In this document: one piece after another, positions 4,074-49,338 of the stretch | Layout: every line of letters begins with the position of its first letter | How positions within the stretch are numbered: the stretch's first letter is position 1 | The notes under the pieces: model-generated | Database searches by the model: none | What the model was told of the DNA's origin: nothing | What the model saw: the letters and a program-made list of their open reading frames with translations, nothing else | Made by a program: the position numbers and the translations under genes | Assembly: GCA_017631085.1 (NCBI GenBank) | Contig: JAGBTY010000020.1 | Coordinates: 9,855-73,854 of the forward strand | Source of the DNA: Clostridia bacterium | GTDB lineage: Bacteria > Bacillota > Clostridia > Oscillospirales > CAG-272 | Direction of reading: 5' to 3' | Length of the DNA stretch: 64,000 nt

Positions 4074-5732
4074 ATGGCAGAAATAGCAAATAATTTTATA
4101 CACGACATTATAGACGCAGACCTCAGAGAAAACCCCGAAATAAAGGTCCACACACGTTTCCCACCCGAGCCTAACGGATATCTCCACATAGGCTCTGCAA
4201 AGGCAATACTCATAAACTATGAGACCGCAAAAAAATACGGTGGACTTTTCAATCTCCGTTATGACGATACAAACCCCGCAAAAGAAGACAACGAATACGT
4301 TGAGGCTATATATGAAGACCTCTGTTGGTTGGGAGCTACACCCTCGGGCGGTGTTTTCTACGGCTCTGATTATTTTGACAAGTGCTACGAATACGCTGAA
4401 AAGCTTATCATGGACGGAAAGGCATACGTATGCGACCTGTCCTCAGAGGAAATGAAGGAATACAGAGGCACACTTACAGAACCAGGCAAGGAAAGCCCCT
4501 ACCGCAACAGAAGCGTTGAGGAAAACCTCGATCTCTTCAGAAGAATGAAAGCAGGAGAATTCCCCGACGGAAGCAGAACACTCAGAGCAAAGATAGATAT
4601 GGCGTCGCCTAACATGAATATGCGTGACCCCGCTATCTACAGAATAGTTCACACTTCTCATCACCGTCAGGGCGATAAATGGTGCATCTATCCTCTTTAT
4701 GACTATGCTCATCCCATTCAGGACGCGCTTGAGGGTATAACCTACTCTCTCTGCTCTCTTGAATTTGAAAATCATCGTCCCCTTTACGAGTGGGTAATAA
4801 ACAACATCGGAATTTTTGATCCCGAGCCCAAGCAGAGAGAATTCGCGCGTCTGAACGTAACCGCAACAGTCATGTCCAAGCGTTATCTTCGTTACCTCGT
4901 TGAAAACGACATGGTAGATGGGTGGGACGATCCCAGACTTCCTACAATATGCGGTCTTCGCCGTCGTGGCTACACACCCGAATCTATTTTCAATTTCGTA
5001 CGCAGTGCGGGCATCTCAAAGGCTAACAGTCTTGTTGACGTTGAAATGCTTGAGCATTCTATAAGAGAAGAGCTTAACGCAAAAGCCCCAAGAAGAATAG
5101 CTATCGAATCCCCCATAAAGCTGGTTATTACAAACTATCCCGAGGACAAGGTAGAATATTTTGAGCTTCCCAACAATCCTCAAGATCCCGAAGCTGGAAC
5201 AAGACAGCTCCCCTTCGGCAGAGAGCTTTATATAGACGCATCCGATTTTGCAGAAGTACCGCCTCCAAAATTCTTCCGTCTCAAGCCCGACGGAGAGGTC
5301 AGACTTATGGGAGCATATATTGTAAAATGCACCGAGATAATCAAGGACTCCGACGGAAATATTATCGAGATACACGCAACAGCAGATCTTGAAACAAGAA
5401 ACGGTAATCCTGCAGATGGTAGAAAGATAAAAGGAACTATCCACTGGCTCTCGGCAAAGGAAGCATGCGATACTACCCTTATGCTCTATGACAGACTCTT
5501 TACCATAGAGAATGTAAACGCGATCCCCGAGGATAAGACCTACAACGATTATCTCAATCCCGACTCCCTCCGTGTCGTTAAGGGTGCAAAGGTCGAAAAA
5601 GCCTTGTTCGAAGCAGCACCTGGCGAAAAATTCCAGTTTGTCAGAAACGGATATTTCTGCAAGGATACGAAAAATGAAAACACCTTTAACCGCATAGTCG
5701 GTCTTAAGGATAGCTTCCCTGCAAAAAAATAA
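4074..5732 (+). CDS. glnS: glutamine--tRNA ligase
   Basis: Contains RFPPEPNGYLHIGSAKA, LRYDDTNP and VMSKR, with a C-terminal anticodon-binding beta-barrel region. AGGAG lies 8 nt upstream of the ATG. Confidence 0.9.
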   Translation: MAEIANNFIHDIIDADLRENPEIKVHTRFPPEPNGYLHIGSAKAILINYETAKKYGGLFNLRYDDTNPAKEDNEYVEAIYEDLCWLGATPSGGVFYGSDYFDKCYEYAEKLIMDGKAYVCDLSSEEMKEYRGTLTEPGKESPYRNRSVEENLDLFRRMKAGEFPDGSRTLRAKIDMASPNMNMRDPAIYRIVHTSHHRQGDKWCIYPLYDYAHPIQDALEGITYSLCSLEFENHRPLYEWVINNIGIFDPEPKQREFARLNVTATVMSKRYLRYLVENDMVDGWDDPRLPTICGLRRRGYTPESIFNFVRSAGISKANSLVDVEMLEHSIREELNAKAPRRIAIESPIKLVITNYPEDKVEYFELPNNPQDPEAGTRQLPFGRELYIDASDFAEVPPPKFFRLKPDGEVRLMGAYIVKCTEIIKDSDGNIIEIHATADLETRNGNPADGRKIKGTIHWLSAKEACDTTLMLYDRLFTIENVNAIPEDKTYNDYLNPDSLRVVKGAKVEKALFEAAPGEKFQFVRNGYFCKDTKNENTFNRIVGLKDSFPAKK

Positions 5733-44132: not shown

Positions 44133-45077
44133 TTAATTAAAAAAGAGCTCTTTTGCATTATTTACAATCTCTTCAAATGTTTTTATTCTGCCGTTCTCCA
44201 TAACAGGCAAGGATTCTACGTATTTCTTGCCTCCAAACCAGGTAATCTGCCTTTTAGCGTATCTACGAGTAGCTCTTTTAAGCTCGTCTACACAATTTTC
44301 GAGGTTATCCTCTTCCCTTACGTACGGCAAAAGCTCCTTATATCCTATCGCTTGTGCCGCCGTACTATTTCGCTCAAATATTCCCTCTTTTTCAAGCTCG
44401 GCGGTTTCCTCGCAAAGCCCTTCGGCTATCATTGCATCTACTCTTTTATCAATTCTTGAACAAAGCACTTCTCTGTCATCATAGTGAAGTCCTATTACCT
44501 TTGCGTCAAATCTCGGCTCTTCAAGCTGCGAGCGCCTGTCAAGCTCGGTCTTTGTAACACCGCTGAGTTTATATATCTCAATTGCTCTCGCAACACGCTT
44601 AACGTTGTTGGGATGCGTTTTTTCCGCACTTTCGGGATCTATCCTCTGAAGTTCCCTATGCAGTGCTTCCGCTCCGTTCTTCTCTGCGAAATCAAGAAGC
44701 TCTTGGCGAAGCTCCGCGTTCCCGTTCTCCTCACCAAAATCCGCCCCTCGAAGAAGCGCGTCAAGATAAAGTCCTGTGCCTCCGCAAACAATGGGAAGCT
44801 TTCCACGGCCGTGGCAATCCCTTATGGCACTATCCGCAAGACTTACGTAATCAGCACATGAAAAAGATTCCCACGGCTCGTTTATGTCTATCATATGGTG
44901 CTTTACTCTTGACTGCTCCTCTGCCGTTGGCTTTGCAGTTCCTATATTCATTCTTTTGTATACCTGCATAGAATCGCAGGATATTATCTCCCCGCCCATG
45001 CTCTCTGCAAGCGCCATGGCAAGTGAGCTCTTGCCCGATGCCGTCGAGCCGACGATGGCGTAAATTTTTATCTTCAT
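44133..45077 (-). CDS. miaA: tRNA dimethylallyltransferase
   Basis: Contains GSTASGKSSLA, I.CDSMQVY..M.IGTAKP, GGTGLY, and the family region ...AKRQ.TWF. Confidence 0.9.
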   Translation of the reverse strand: MKIKIYAIVGSTASGKSSLAMALAESMGGEIISCDSMQVYKRMNIGTAKPTAEEQSRVKHHMIDINEPWESFSCADYVSLADSAIRDCHGRGKLPIVCGGTGLYLDALLRGADFGEENGNAELRQELLDFAEKNGAEALHRELQRIDPESAEKTHPNNVKRVARAIEIYKLSGVTKTELDRRSQLEEPRFDAKVIGLHYDDREVLCSRIDKRVDAMIAEGLCEETAELEKEGIFERNSTAAQAIGYKELLPYVREEDNLENCVDELKRATRRYAKRQITWFGGKKYVESLPVMENGRIKTFEEIVNNAKELFFN

Positions 45078-45140
45078 TTTTTTCTCTTATTTTTAAATTT
45101 GATTTATTATAAAGATTCCGTATCCGATATTTATTTTGCC

Positions 45141-45260
45141 TATAGGGGCGTGCATTGCACGTCCGCGGACGCCCGACAACCTATGTCGAGGGATTTGAGT
45201 CACCCGACAACGAAGTATACGGCAATTTATACAATCAACATCGCGTCCGCAATGCTGATG
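45141..45260. ncRNA. GC-rich element with nested inverted repeats (candidate structured RNA or protein-binding site)
   Basis: GCATTGC..GCGGACGC (45152-45171) is complementary to GCGTCCGCAATGC (45243-45255). Internal palindromes are GTGCAtTGCAC and GTCCGCGGAC. CCCGACAAC occurs twice, and a GTCGaGGG / CCCGAC helix is possible. Confidence 0.25.
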
Positions 45261-45321
45261 CAATATAAGATTTTACCGATTGGTAATATTGCACAAACCA
45301 AACGGAATATTCACAAACAAG

Positions 45322-45350
45322 TAAAGAGGCTATCTGATTAGACAGCCTCT
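45322..45350 (-). terminator. probable terminator of the deaminase/zinc-ribbon operon
   Basis: On the minus strand: AGAGGCTgTC-taatca-GAtAGCCTCT followed by TTACTTGTTTGT. The U-tract is only moderate. Confidence 0.45.
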
Positions 45351-45366
45351 AACAAATAAAAGGATC

Positions 45367-45579
45367 TTACTTTACTGCAACCGCCTTTTTCTCAAAAGCG
45401 TTTCTCTCTGATTTTTTTAAAGACTTTGAGTTACCCACCACTCTATATGAGATACCATTTATACCCATATTTCGCTTTTGACCAATGGTGGCATCCTCCC
45501 AGTTGCAATCTGTGCAAATATAAGCACCAAAGTATGAATTATACGAAACTACTTTTCCGCATTTAGGACAAATTTTCAT
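45367..45579 (-). CDS. 70-aa C4 zinc-ribbon protein with a basic tail, translationally coupled to the upstream deaminase
   Basis: Contains CPKC-x14-CTDC. The RBS GGAGGTG lies 6 nt upstream. Its ATG overlaps the deaminase stop (ATGA at 45576-45579). Confidence 0.6.
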   Translation of the reverse strand: MKICPKCGKVVSYNSYFGAYICTDCNWEDATIGQKRNMGINGISYRVVGNSKSLKKSERNAFEKKAVAVK

Positions 45580-46733
45580 CTCAACACCTCCATAAATTTA
45601 AAATAACTATTAAACGTAACACCTTCAAAAGGCACTTGGCTAACATTGTGTGCTGCTAAAGTTTTCTTTGCTTCTTCTTGCGGATAAGGCTCATAATATA
45701 TAACTTTTTTGATACCTATTTGTGCTATTTTATTCGCACATAGATTACACGGATATGTAGTAGTATAAAGCGTTGCTTTCGAATGATTAGTAGATACACT
45801 TAATCTTGCCATATTGACTATTGCGTTTTCTTCCGCATGTAGTGCTCTACAATAGTCCAGCATTTTGGAATTGTTTTTCACAATAGAAGAAATCTTGCTA
45901 GATACTTCTGGATCTTTTAGTTCACCTTGTATCTTTTCATTGATATCTTTCCTTAAAAACTTCCGATAGCACATCCCATACTCGCGCTTACAAGAACGTT
46001 CGAGAACCGGAACTTCATTATACCCTGAACTAAAAACATTTCCGTATTCATCTATTATCAATGCGCCCACTTTTCGTTGGGTACAAGACGATCTCATGCT
46101 ATTAGCATATGCCATAGCCATTAATGTTTCCATTTCTGTAGGCTCGTACATAGCATTCTTTTCGACCAAATCAACATATCTTTCTACTATCTTTTTGAGT
46201 GTAACAAAATCGTCAGATTGCTCCGCATGAATTTTTGTTTCATTCAACACGATAACATCTGCCATTTGATAACACAAAGTGATTTGTTGTCCGTTTTCAT
46301 CTTTTTCATCTTTGTCGCGTTTATCATCTTTTTCAAAAACTGACAAATCACCTTTGTATTTATCTCTTACTCTCTCCCATCTAGTATCTTTGCTAGCCCA
46401 AACCGCCAGCAAATAAAACTCTGGAAAATGTTTTTTTAAACTATCAATTTCGTGCGTATTACGAATGCTATCAATAACAAATTTATCACTATCAGTTGAA
46501 TCAATAATTTCAATTGCTTTATCAGCTAAATACCCTGCGCCATATTGGGCTCTCGTCTCATTTCCCTTATCTTGAAGATCACTCCTAGAATATTCGCCAT
46601 CTGTTATGGCACTTCTCAATATTTCTGATAGTGAAATGTACTTGTAGCCTTTTGAAGATAGAATTTTTTTTGCAATATAAGAACATCCACTTCCAAACGG
46701 TCCTGTTAAACCAATAATCTTTTTCCCAGGCAT
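45576..46733 (-). CDS. P-loop nucleotide-kinase-like domain fused to a dCMP/dCTP-type zinc deaminase (AvcD / antiphage dCTP-deaminase-like)
   Basis: The N-terminal IIGLTGPFGSGCSY resembles the CoaE/dNMP-kinase-like P-loop. The C-terminus has LHAEENAI (HAE zinc/catalytic motif) and YPCNLCANK (PCxxC). The ATG at 46733 lies 9 nt after AGGAG. The gene is AT-richer than its flanks. Confidence 0.8.
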   Translation of the reverse strand: MPGKKIIGLTGPFGSGCSYIAKKILSSKGYKYISLSEILRSAITDGEYSRSDLQDKGNETRAQYGAGYLADKAIEIIDSTDSDKFVIDSIRNTHEIDSLKKHFPEFYLLAVWASKDTRWERVRDKYKGDLSVFEKDDKRDKDEKDENGQQITLCYQMADVIVLNETKIHAEQSDDFVTLKKIVERYVDLVEKNAMYEPTEMETLMAMAYANSMRSSCTQRKVGALIIDEYGNVFSSGYNEVPVLERSCKREYGMCYRKFLRKDINEKIQGELKDPEVSSKISSIVKNNSKMLDYCRALHAEENAIVNMARLSVSTNHSKATLYTTTYPCNLCANKIAQIGIKKVIYYEPYPQEEAKKTLAAHNVSQVPFEGVTFNSYFKFMEVLR

Positions 46734-46953
46734 AAACAAAAGCTCCTAACAATGATGCACTAATATACACACATATTTTACCACAAAAAAAACTAAAAAA
46801 CAATACTTTACAAAAAATTTGTTTGTAAATATTTTATTTAATCAACATCCCTTCGCAAAAAGATTAAAGAATTGTTGTTTTTAAAAAACATATAGAATCA
46901 AAAAATCATTCAAACACCAATAGATGTAACACTTTTTTCCTTGCTCGCTTCTT

Positions 46954-48042
46954 TTATACTATCAACATCGCGTCGCCAAAGGAGAAAAATCTATACTTCT
47001 CCTCCACCGCGACCTTATATGCCTCCATTATCTTTTCTCTGTTATAGAGAGCCGATACAAGCATAAGAAGCGTACTTTCTGGCAAATGGAAATTTGTGAT
47101 GAGAGCGTCCACCGCTTTGAATTTATATCCGGGATAGATAAATATTCCCGTATCTCCCGATATTGCTCTTACGTGTCCATCGTCGTCCGTAGCACTCTCA
47201 AGGGTTCTGCATGACGTCGTTCCTACACATATGACCCTACCGCCTTTAGCTTTTGCCTCGTTTATAATATCCGCGCTTTCCTTTGAGACTGAGAAAAACT
47301 CGGTATGCATGACGTGTTCGTCTATTCTTTCGACCTTGACGGGACGAAATGTTCCAAGCCCTACGTGAAGCATTACAGGGGCTATCTTTACGCCCTTTTC
47401 CTTTATCTTCTCCAACAGTTCGGGAGTAAAATGAAGTCCGGCAGTAGGTGCTGCCGCAGAGCCTTCCTCACGGGCATACACTGTCTGATATCTGCTGTTA
47501 TCTCGAAGCTGTTCTGTTATGTAGGGAGGCAGAGGCATAAGACCTATCTGGTGAAGTATCTCATATATATTTGAATATTTTTCTCTGTCATAATCAAAAT
47601 GTATTATTCTGTTTCCCTCGTCGGTAATATCTACTACCTGTGACGTAAGACTTCCGTTACCGAATACTGCCACAGAGCCTATCCTTGCTCTCTTACCGGG
47701 TTTTACAAGGCACTCCCAAGTATCTATCTCGCGTTGTCTCAAAAGAAGCAACTCAAGTGTCGCGTCCTCTCTTCCCTTTGCGTGACCGTAAATTCTTGCG
47801 GGAATTACCTTGGAATCGTTTATTACGAGAACATCTCCCTCATGCAATCTGTCTATTATATTGTAAAAATGCTCATGCTCAATACTTCCGCTTTTTCTGT
47901 CAAGCACCATGAGCCTTGAATGATCCCTCTTTTCCGCAGGATGTTGAGCTATGAGCTCCTCGGGCAGATCATAAAAAAAATCTGATGCCTTAAGATCTGT
48001 GGGCTCTTTTTTATTTATAATACGTACTGAACTTTCTTTCAT
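46954..48042 (-). CDS. queA: S-adenosylmethionine:tRNA ribosyltransferase-isomerase
   Basis: Contains [34 protein letters not shown]...[12 protein letters not shown] and VGTTS.R.LE. Confidence 0.9.
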
Positions 48043-48139: not shown

Positions 48140-48316
48140 ACATATAATTATGGTAGAGGTGCGACGTATCACTGCTATACTGTAAGGCTTCCGCAACCGT
48201 TTGAACAGTATACGCGAGGATATATCGCCGAAGGCATTCCGTTTGCGGTAGCGGCGTGTGCTGGTCATGTCGGTCAATAGCCGTATGATTGTCATCATTT
48301 TGATGGAGAGCTATCT
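48140..48316 (+). promoter_or_regulatory. lysine riboswitch (L-box)
   Basis: 5' GGTAGAGGTGCGAC, an internal CGCCGAAGG, and 3' TGATGGAGAGCTATC match conserved L-box blocks. It lies upstream of the lysine-pathway genes dapA and dapB. Confidence 0.8.
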
Positions 48317-48363
48317 GTTATTGTTGTAGTGTAAATCTGTATTTATATTATAGTACAATTTCA

Positions 48364-48444: not shown

Positions 48445-49338
48445 ATGAGTAAGAACAAGCAAACTATCTTCACCGGGGCGGCAACAGCCATTATCACCCC
48501 ATTTTTAAACGGAGCGATCGACTACGAAAGCTTTGGAAAAATAATTGAAGACCAGATAGCAAGAAGCATCGATGCTATCGTCGTCGCAGGAACTACGGGT
48601 GAAGCGGCAACACTTACCCATGAGGAGCACTGCGAATGTATCAAATACGTTGTAGACAAGGTAGCGGGAAGAGTTCCTGTTATCGCAGGTACTGGCTCTA
48701 ATGATACCGCATACGGTATTGAACTTTCGAAGTACGCGTGTGAGGTCGGAGCAGATGCTCTTCTCCTCGTTACCCCCTACTACAATAAGGCAACATCCAA
48801 GGGACTTATCAAAAACTTCATCGAGACTGCAGAGGCGACCGATAAGCCTATTATTCTTTATAACGTTCCTTCAAGAACGGGCTGTAATATTTCCATTCCC
48901 GTTTACAAGGAACTTGCAAAGCACGAAAGAATAGTAGCCGTAAAGGAAGCATCCGGTAACCTCAGTGCCGTAGCAGAGCTTGCGGCTGAATGTGGAGACG
49001 ACCTTGACATTTATTCAGGAAATGACGACCAGATAGTTCCTATCATGTCTCTCGGTGGAAAGGGTGTCATCTCTGTCCTTTCAAATATTCTTCCAAAGGA
49101 AACTCATGATATTGCAGAGCTTTGTCTCAATGATAATTACAAAGCAGCTGCTGCGCTTCAGCTTAAATATCTGAAGCTTATAAACGCTCTCTTCTGTGAA
49201 GTAAACCCCGTTCCCGTAAAGACCGCAATGGCAGAGCTCAAGATGTGTGACATTGAAATGAGACTTCCGCTTTGTGAAATGGAGGACTCTAACAAAGAAA
49301 AACTCTTGGCTGCTATGAAGCTCCATAATCTTATATAA
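48445..49338 (+). CDS. dapA: 4-hydroxy-tetrahydrodipicolinate synthase
   Basis: Contains G...A..TPF, VAGTTGE, GTGSN.T, YYNK and YN.P.RT, with a KEASG active-site lysine context. Confidence 0.92.
   Translation: MSKNKQTIFTGAATAIITPFLNGAIDYESFGKIIEDQIARSIDAIVVAGTTGEAATLTHEEHCECIKYVVDKVAGRVPVIAGTGSNDTAYGIELSKYACEVGADALLLVTPYYNKATSKGLIKNFIETAEATDKPIILYNVPSRTGCNISIPVYKELAKHERIVAVKEASGNLSAVAELAAECGDDLDIYSGNDDQIVPIMSLGGKGVISVLSNILPKETHDIAELCLNDNYKAAAALQLKYLKLINALFCEVNPVPVKTAMAELKMCDIEMRLPLCEMEDSNKEKLLAAMKLHNLI

Follow-up and report, generated by a model that had tools for sequence, protein, structure and literature searches.

What does an enzyme related to anti-phage deaminases do with a tiny zinc-ribbon protein whose gene begins where its own gene ends? 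This question is raised by a two-gene insert between queA and miaA on contig JAGBTY010000020.1 of a Clostridia bacterium (assembly GCA_017631085.1), which lies in a 64,000-nucleotide stretch of DNA that was analysed as a whole and that we refer to as the window. Both genes of the insert, hereafter the cassette, lie on the minus strand: a large open reading frame (ORF) encodes a fusion of a kinase-like and a deaminase domain, and a small ORF located 3' of it encodes a protein of 70 amino acids (aa) with the motif CPKC-x14-CTDC. An earlier note on this DNA had proposed that the pair is a variant nucleotide-depletion defence system. The ORFs, their motifs, the ATGA overlap between them, the GGAGGTG ribosome-binding site and the flanking genes, as checked against the ORF list and the sequence, were all found where it had placed them, and the segment that it called AT-richer is indeed so, with a GC content of 0.338 vs 0.413 in the window; just 0.08% of all 1.7-kb segments of the 64 kb are as low. 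The answer developed below is that the deaminase belongs, as a divergent short form, to a known defence family and that its obligatory zinc-ribbon partner is, as far as could be searched, undescribed.

An important first step is the identity of the large ORF, which the earlier note had assigned to the antiphage dCTP deaminase/AvcD family on account of motifs read in its translation (IIGLTGPFGSGCSY, LHAEENAI and YPCNLCANK; GPFGSGCSY, HAEENA and PCNLC). Sequence comparison confirms it as a divergent short-form member of this family. Pfam models place AAA_18/AAA_17 at residues 9-137 and dCMP_cyt_deam_1 at residues 202-349 (1.4e-19), the PADLOC dCTPase model PDLC02373 matches with an E-value of 1.4e-95 (profile positions 156-520 of 630), and BLASTP against the 'anti-phage dCTP deaminase' of an E. 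coli plasmid (WP_223351761.1) gives 31% identity over the full length (E 8e-42). A tblastn search of plasmids retrieved proteins from E. coli, Klebsiella, Photobacterium and Vibrio that are annotated as anti-phage dCTP deaminases and align to residues 6-381 with 26-30% identity. In the AlphaFold (AF2) model, which has a predicted local distance difference test score (pLDDT) of 84.8 and a predicted template-modelling (TM) score of 0.82, the N-domain resembles an archaeal AdkA-like kinase (3lw7, TM 0.86) and the C-domain the dCMP/dCTP deaminases of T4, human, S. mutans and PBCV-1; no structure of a defence dCTP deaminase was found in the Protein Data Bank (PDB), either by sequence or by fold.

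Compared with the anti-phage dCTP deaminase described by Tal et al. (bioRxiv 10.1101/2021.04.26.441389; PADLOC dCTPase; NF041025), the cassette protein has the same N-terminal kinase-like and C-terminal zinc cytosine deaminase domains, aligns with annotated members of the family along the entire length at 26-31% identity, and shares the family's sporadic, mobile-element-linked occurrence. On the other hand, it measures about 385 aa against the 510-576 aa of known proteins (510-527 aa in the long forms that we retrieved), from which it differs by the absence of a C-terminal extension of 50-80 residues and of several insertions, and whereas the known system is a single gene, the cassette has a conserved zinc-ribbon gene that is always coupled downstream. 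The short form constitutes a tight subfamily of proteins of about 385 aa: among 844 homologues at E <= 1e-5, the 120 listed are 59-99% identical and all of them are short-form. The HAE and PCxxC motifs and most of TGPFGSGC[ST]Y are invariant in this subfamily; in 65 homologues, H299, E301, C329 and C332 do not vary, and at least 90% of the sequences share the two last C-terminal residues (M, L) of FMEVLR. We infer the protein's enzymatic activity and its defence phenotype.

The earlier note had also observed that a Cys occupies the place of the usual Lys in the Walker-A motif of the P-loop, and had suggested that the kinase-like domain, its Walker A being degenerate, may be regulatory and not catalytic. 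The observation holds, and the Cys is present in at least 90% of the 65 sequences and in 15/15 sequences of another comparison; the long forms retrieved have GSG[IV]KS where the short subfamily has GSGC[ST]. The Cys is thus a fixed trait of the subfamily and no sign of decay. The dCTP deaminase of E. coli likewise has a non-canonical nucleotide-binding motif, with a Cys beside a Gly, that is needed for defence: both G29A and C30A abolish it (Tal et al., bioRxiv 10.1101/2021.04.26.441389). These two residues of the 576-aa protein plausibly correspond to G16 and C17 of the 385-aa protein. The motif is therefore non-canonical across the family and functionally required where tested, and because the Cys is fixed in the subfamily and the motif is needed for defence in the E. 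coli homologue, the suggestion of a degenerate and hence merely regulatory domain is conceivable but unsupported.

Given a deaminase of a known family, is the small gene its partner or a passenger? For four divergent homologues of the small protein (48-57% identity), the zinc-ribbon gene lies directly 3' of a kinase-deaminase gene of 384-391 aa, with a 4-nucleotide (nt) overlap, in 13/13 places whose flanks are unrelated (the edges of integrase/relaxase elements, the vicinity of FokI or of guaA, a position after a tRNA gene); in one of these places, L005, an in-frame stop splits the deaminase. A genome scan with deaminase patterns found the ribbon gene and the ATGA overlap in 10/10 loci of at least 59% identity, variant N-termini included, and a metagenome scan with ribbon patterns found a deaminase immediately upstream in 11 of 18 loci, down to 44% identity; among the metagenome loci below 55% identity, the junction was not read in L046, L048 and L051. 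The overlap and the FMEVLR C-terminus are kept across the short-form loci compared, the exception being L045 (44% identity), where the genes do not overlap. Taken together, the zinc-ribbon gene follows every intact short-form deaminase examined, in about 25 lineages with unrelated flanks, and no intact short-form deaminase without a ribbon was seen among these loci. Seven distant kinase-deaminase fusions from Aminicenantes, Acidobacteria and one archaeon, at 32-39% identity, have no ribbon. The distribution of the pair is sporadic, with presence/absence polymorphism at queA and carriage as cargo of integrase/relaxase elements elsewhere, where its neighbours are mobile or defence-rich (integrases, relaxases, FokI, PDC-M41A, a CARF/STK kinase, HipA-like genes). 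Within the cassette, GGAGGTG stands 5 nt ahead of the zinc-ribbon ATG, among the final codons of the deaminase gene (M-E-V-L-R-stop), and the overlap implies that the zinc-ribbon gene would be translationally coupled to the deaminase gene. The small gene thus tracks with kinase-deaminase genes, which the earlier note had proposed to check, and its product is very probably a functional partner of the deaminase in a defence or toxin-antitoxin (TA) module.

The zinc-ribbon gene itself is a real protein-coding gene under strong purifying selection. Its homologues form 45 clusters in a 90% database and 351 representatives at 50% clustering, 57 of them with E < 1e-10. The first 28 residues are almost invariant (M-K-I-C-P-K-C-G-K-x3-Y-N-S-Y-F-G-A-Y-I-C-x2-C-x-W-E), with C4, C7, C22, C25, SYFG and WE never changing, and the tail is variable. 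Over these 28 codons, synonymous sites are saturated and the nonsynonymous divergence (dN) is 0.015-0.21, the ratio to synonymous divergence (dN/dS) being 0.01-0.09 where computable. The AF2 model predicts a confident ribbon (pLDDT ~88 at residues 1-30) and a disordered tail (below 50 at residues 43-56) which, despite its variable sequence, is basic in the main clade (isoelectric point (pI) of ~10-11.5) and acidic in some members, e.g., L021. The protein has no PADLOC match and no supra-threshold Pfam or NCBIfam model, Pfam matches being sub-threshold only, and searches of the PDB by sequence and fold returned nothing significant beyond generic Zn ribbons (best Foldseek E 0.1), of which those of TFS4/TFIIB, RPA and PriA are the nearest. 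It carries no name in databases, and literature searches found no paper mentioning it and none on a protein partner of AvcD or dCTP deaminase, which agrees with the view of the earlier note that a dedicated protein partner would be an undescribed configuration. The same ribbon also forms the N-terminal part of five proteins of 160-315 aa (P0178, P0197, P0215, P0262 and P0283), in which it is fused to unrelated C-terminal regions.

A further line of evidence comes from loci in which the pair has fallen apart. The deaminase is interrupted by an in-frame stop in L005 (2850-4004), is frameshifted in L022 (4001-5160) and has a large internal deletion in L023 (4001-4452), all with an intact ribbon gene, and on the IMG/VR contig L062 (1794-2083) a 31-residue remnant of the deaminase C-terminus precedes an intact Zn-ribbon gene. 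Decay is thus asymmetric: a broken deaminase with an intact ribbon was found in four loci, and the reverse was never seen. Upstream of the L062 remnant lies a HipA-like/DUF3037-like pair with weak matches to PADLOC PDC-M66A/B. Ribbons also occur as orphans in phage-like DNA, one of them among genes matching PHROG families (L043, 3001-3147) and another on an IMG/VR contig, where it forms the N-terminus of a 174-aa protein (L061, 10232-10756); the scan of viral contigs used the specific pattern NSYFGAY[IL]C and gave two loci. Two more ribbons without a deaminase were seen in L041 (2995-3198) and L044 (754-993). Such stand-alone ribbons may be anti-defence proteins, or they may reflect a wider use of the domain.

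These orphans, together with the copies beside dead deaminases, would be unexpected if the ribbon were a constitutive structural subunit or assembly factor that replaces the extension and insertions of the long forms and has no regulatory role. The difference in length between short (385 aa) and long forms (510-527 aa) does fit such a subunit, as do the conserved FMEVLR C-terminus and the coupling implied by the overlap, which would favour balanced synthesis. However, neither a Cys motif nor any similarity to the ribbon is found in the C-terminal extensions of the long forms from E. coli and Photobacterium, for which reason the idea of a ribbon split off from the C-terminus of a long form was rejected, and no natural fusion of deaminase and ribbon occurs among the 120 listed homologues, the longer database entries being mis-called N-termini. 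We therefore assign a low probability to this explanation.

How did the pair come to lie between queA and miaA? The final ~27 nt of queA recur as three direct repeats that bound the insert (copies 1 to 3 in Table 1), a number for which a repeat search gives a chance expectation of none. The same cassette follows queA in L014, a metagenome-assembled genome of a Clostridia bacterium from roe-deer caecum, whose queA and miaA products are 77% and 53% identical to those of the window; in a sliding comparison, the DNA of the two cassettes is 97-100% identical from ~46970 to ~45247 and identity drops abruptly inside copies 1 and 3. In L057 (queA 80% identical) the site is empty and queA is directly followed by miaA (5040-5240). 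Because the queA end of L057 and the DNA downstream of it match copy 3 and what follows, copy 3 is the displaced original end of queA, the present one being supplied by the cassette. In the closest relative, L056 (queA 88% identical), the site is occupied by two TA-like cassettes of a different kind, each of which ends in a copy of that genome's own queA end, and L059 has other genes between queA and miaA. No empty site was found among five contigs with an identical queA or miaA, all of which carry the insert. Copy 2 and positions 46860-46952 make up a 120-nt mini-unit, probably left by an earlier insertion.

These presence/absence data bear on an explanation that would make the whole case trivial, namely that the large ORF encodes a ComEB-like fusion of dCMP deaminase and kinase with a housekeeping role in nucleotide salvage and that the small ORF is incidental. 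The deaminase domain does resemble dCMP deaminases, and partnerless kinase-deaminase fusions do exist in distant Aminicenantes and Acidobacteria. On the other hand, the position is variable, being empty in L057 and filled by other genes in L056 and L059, the cassette is nearly identical in two species whose queA products are only 77% identical, the match to the ComEB model TIGR02571 (55.3 bits) is far from its cut-off of 219, and purifying selection on the small ORF is strong. The presence/absence data refute the housekeeping reading in practice, leaving it exceedingly improbable, and they bear out the suggestion of the earlier note that the insert was not vertically inherited.

Comparison of several genomes points to a mode of insertion that is not specific to this pair. 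L014 and L015 carry several units, each ending in a conserved element of ~75 nt, and an nhmmer search for the family of this element (E 3.5e-24) retrieved it in the window, in three copies in L014 (5427-5510, 5580-5653 and 6957-7043) and in two to three copies in L015 (286-374 and 2210-2294). Its consensus is TTTGTGCAAnATTACCAATCGGTAAAATCTTATATAGCATCAGCATTG, followed by the copy of the queA end. No consensus RNA structure was predicted for this element and it has no Rfam match; at ~75-90 nt, it may be a recombination site. The impression that 70 nt of the element mimic queA coding sequence was rejected, the match being limited to the last ~24-27 nt. In the window, L014, L015 and L056, the interval from queA to miaA contains no recombinase or integrase gene, and none acting in trans was identified. 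The cassettes found in these intervals (45078-46953 in the window, 3759-7045 in L014, 285-2295 in L015 and 1240-3225 in L056) comprise the deaminase/Zn-ribbon pair, a Gp49/helix-turn-helix (HTH) pair, a DUF4160/DUF2442 pair and a 211-aa ORF with a DUF2442-like ORF. Of these, the Gp49/HTH and DUF4160/DUF2442 cassettes are TA modules of the classical two-gene type, the toxin gene coming first in, e.g., Gp49/HTH. All in all, the queA-miaA interval is a hotspot where small self-promoted cassettes accrete in tandem, and the deaminase cassette is mobile and appears to have integrated site-specifically into the 3' end of queA.

The nearest parallels to this arrangement are found among integrative elements. 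CIME-type elements are cis-mobilisable derivatives of such elements that lack a recombinase. SGI1, which resides at trmE, is an integrative element that targets the 3' end of a housekeeping/tRNA-modification gene (PMC8409611; PMC6531882). The cassette is like SGI1 and CIME-type elements in its insertion into the last ~20-25 nt of queA, the regeneration of the gene end, the flanking direct repeats, the tandem arrangement of cassettes and the existence of an empty site. It differs from them in that it is only 1.7 kb long, encodes no integrase or transfer function and belongs to units that end in a ~75-nt element which we could assign to no known type of site. A pair that is always on mobile DNA, and that at queA sits among classical TA cassettes, might serve mainly as an addiction (stabilisation) module for the cassette and for carrier islands, without being dedicated to protection from phages. 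One module may serve both addiction and defence, but as an account of the pair's main function we see only a slim chance for addiction, given that the enzyme family has demonstrated anti-phage activity and that defence genes are neighbours in other loci.

If the ribbon is a partner of the deaminase in a mobile defence or TA module, in which direction does it act? A precedent is offered by AvcID of Vibrio cholerae, a type III TA system in which AvcD is held inactive by the labile small RNA (sRNA) AvcI and freed when phage shuts off host transcription (PMC10511110; PMC9455884). The two systems have in common a homologous dCMP/dCTP deaminase toxin which, in AvcID, is checked post-translationally by a small, labile and co-encoded partner, and their proposed logic is alike in that a shut-off of host expression frees the enzyme. 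They differ in the nature and place of the partner: AvcI is a non-coding sRNA upstream of avcD, whereas the candidate antitoxin of the cassette is a downstream zinc-ribbon protein of 60-80 aa, whose presumed inhibition of the enzyme would be type II-like. Upstream of the deaminase gene, no conserved AvcI-like element was found across divergent short-form loci, which share nothing there beyond the promoter, and positions 45000-47000 have no Rfam match; an AvcI-like sRNA is therefore not evident. As an aside, two proteobacterial plasmids (L033, 2147-2329; L034, 2142-2312) have a Cys-free 'hypothetical protein' ORF of 56-60 aa just upstream of a long-form dCTP deaminase, where an AvcI sRNA would be expected, and this ORF is probably an annotation artefact over the sRNA.

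We propose that the cassette would be a self-promoted, two-gene nucleotide-depletion defence or TA system. The active deaminase would turn dCTP and dCMP into dUTP and dUMP, thereby starving the replication of phage DNA. In uninfected cells, the zinc-ribbon protein, produced by coupling, would bind the deaminase and hold it inactive, acting as a labile protein antitoxin and as the counterpart of the AvcI sRNA; once a phage shuts off host gene expression, the ribbon would no longer be resynthesised and would decay, so that the deaminase would be freed. A role of the zinc-ribbon protein as antitoxin or inhibitor is favoured by the asymmetric decay, the phage orphans, the want of an evident sRNA, the TA cassettes at the hotspot and the AvcI precedent taken together, and we put it at about an even chance. 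The gene organisation, the coupling, the disordered tail and the asymmetry of decay are all compatible with a type II TA system. One such system, MqsR/MqsA, is encoded by a toxin-first operon and its antitoxin has a zinc-coordinating N-terminal domain. The cassette resembles it in the order of a toxin gene before a small antitoxin gene and in a zinc-coordinating partner; it differs in that there is no sequence or detectable fold relation, in that a nucleotide deaminase takes the place of an RNase as the toxin, and in that the partner has no HTH.

The strict pairing fits equally well with a ribbon that acts as a positive partner, that is, as a sensor or adaptor for phage nucleic acid or protein which activates the deaminase or tethers it to replicating DNA. 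Zn ribbons typically bind nucleic acids or proteins, the nearest folds being the ribbons of TFS4/TFIIB, RPA and PriA, the tail is consistently basic in the main clade, and fusion of the same ribbon to other C-terminal domains is what one would expect of a modular adaptor. However, some members of the clade have acidic tails, if the ribbon were an activator, its loss should have left behind some intact deaminases that lack a partner, of which none was seen, ribbons carried by phages as orphans are easier to explain as inhibitors, and the characterised members of the family need no protein sensor. We thus consider an activating or tethering ribbon unlikely.

Several points nevertheless weigh against an inhibitory ribbon or against the proposed mechanism as a whole. 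Both the physical binding of the ribbon to the deaminase and the inhibitory direction of its effect are ones that we infer. AvcI-type sRNAs may be unconserved in sequence, and the negative result upstream of the deaminase gene is compatible with an RNA that is unconserved or antisense. The antitoxin gene comes first in most type II TA operons, whereas the candidate antitoxin of the cassette comes second. The same pairing and the same asymmetry of decay would be expected, if less strongly, for an obligate activator or subunit. Since the zinc ribbon matches generic ribbons only, its fold offers no functional clue. Finally, the deaminase matches the NCBIfam equivalog NF041025 'anti-phage dCTP deaminase' over its whole length with 239.6 bits, which is below the 400-bit cut-off; it is hence a non-canonical member from a divergent short subfamily, and equivalence of function is not to be assumed from this model.

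The remaining features of the locus concern its expression and its surroundings (Table 1). The large ORF may be read as 387 aa from a TTG at 46739 (45576-46739, minus strand), but the ATG at 46733 is the likelier start, with AGGAG 9 nt upstream and with a product of 385 aa, the length called for homologues. The TTGTTT/TGgTAAAAT site upstream of it is the putative promoter of the cassette, from which the 5' untranslated region would be ~40 nt long; L014 and L015 share this TGTGGTAAAAT, and a consensus scan also gave other nearby sites. Just 3' of the native queA stop, the DNA at 45100-45225 (…CGTTGTCGGG…CTCGACATAGG…) is semi-conserved across species (L015, 367-470; L057, 5090-5160) and may be the native queA terminator or a miaA leader. 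On the other side of queA, a lysine riboswitch (Rfam RF00168, 68.9 bits) at 48146-48321 on the plus strand precedes dapA (48445-49338) and dapB, an ordinary and known arrangement.

Table 1. Features of the cassette and its flanks, by position in the window.
Feature	Position	Strand	Description
miaA	44133..45077		flanking gene; Pfam IPPT 1e-86
Cassette-end element	45219..45307	(-)	conserved, ~75-90 nt; ends in repeat copy 3
Repeat copy 3	45226..45252	(-)	right junction, attR-like
Horizontally transferred block	45247..46970	(-)	~1.72 kb
Intrinsic-terminator-like hairpin	45325..45350	(-)	3' of zinc-ribbon gene; 11-bp stem with 5 GC pairs, T-rich tail
Zinc-ribbon gene	45367..45579	(-)	70-aa C4 zinc-ribbon protein; proposed antitoxin or regulator
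Coupling junction	45576..45591	(-)	GGAGGTG Shine-Dalgarno at 45591-45585 and ATGA stop/start overlap at 45579-45576
Deaminase gene	45576..46733	(-)	385 aa from ATG at 46733; short-form kinase-like/dCMP-dCTP deaminase; proposed effector (toxin)
Putative cassette promoter	46775..46803	(-)	TTGTTT, 17-nt spacer, extended -10 TGgTAAAAT
Repeat copy 2	46833..46859	(-)	internal degenerate copy of queA end inside the cassette; identical in L014
Repeat copy 1	46953..46979	(-)	functional queA 3' end; left junction, attL-like; last ~10 nt and stop codon from the cassette
queA	46954..48042		flanking gene; Pfam Queuosine_synth 1e-142

Our results also invite a broader and more speculative scenario, which we offer tentatively and regard as somewhat doubtful in its entirety. 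In this scenario, an AvcD-like clade that is common in gut and rumen Clostridia would have swapped the AvcI sRNA for a zinc-ribbon protein antitoxin (type III vs type II-like), the stand-alone ribbons of phages would serve as anti-defence decoys by neutralising the deaminase of the host, and the cassette would belong to an array, integron-like and so far undescribed, of small TA/defence cassettes that a recombinase acting in trans inserts successively at the 3' end of queA.

To our knowledge, nucleotide-depleting deaminases are an established anti-phage strategy, and the AvcI sRNA of Vibrio is the only known means by which such an enzyme is kept silent. A protein partner conserved throughout a large clade of Firmicutes would provide a second, experimentally tractable solution to the problem of control. 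With 844 homologues of the deaminase and 351 representatives of its partner, the family is large, and the partner would offer a handle for pull-downs, structures and degradation assays. The proposed reading would also account for the fact that these genes remain without names in current annotation pipelines, and it predicts a class of phage-encoded inhibitors. Furthermore, the cassette arrays linked to queA suggest that tiny defence and TA modules travel between gut bacteria by a route that has gone unrecognised.

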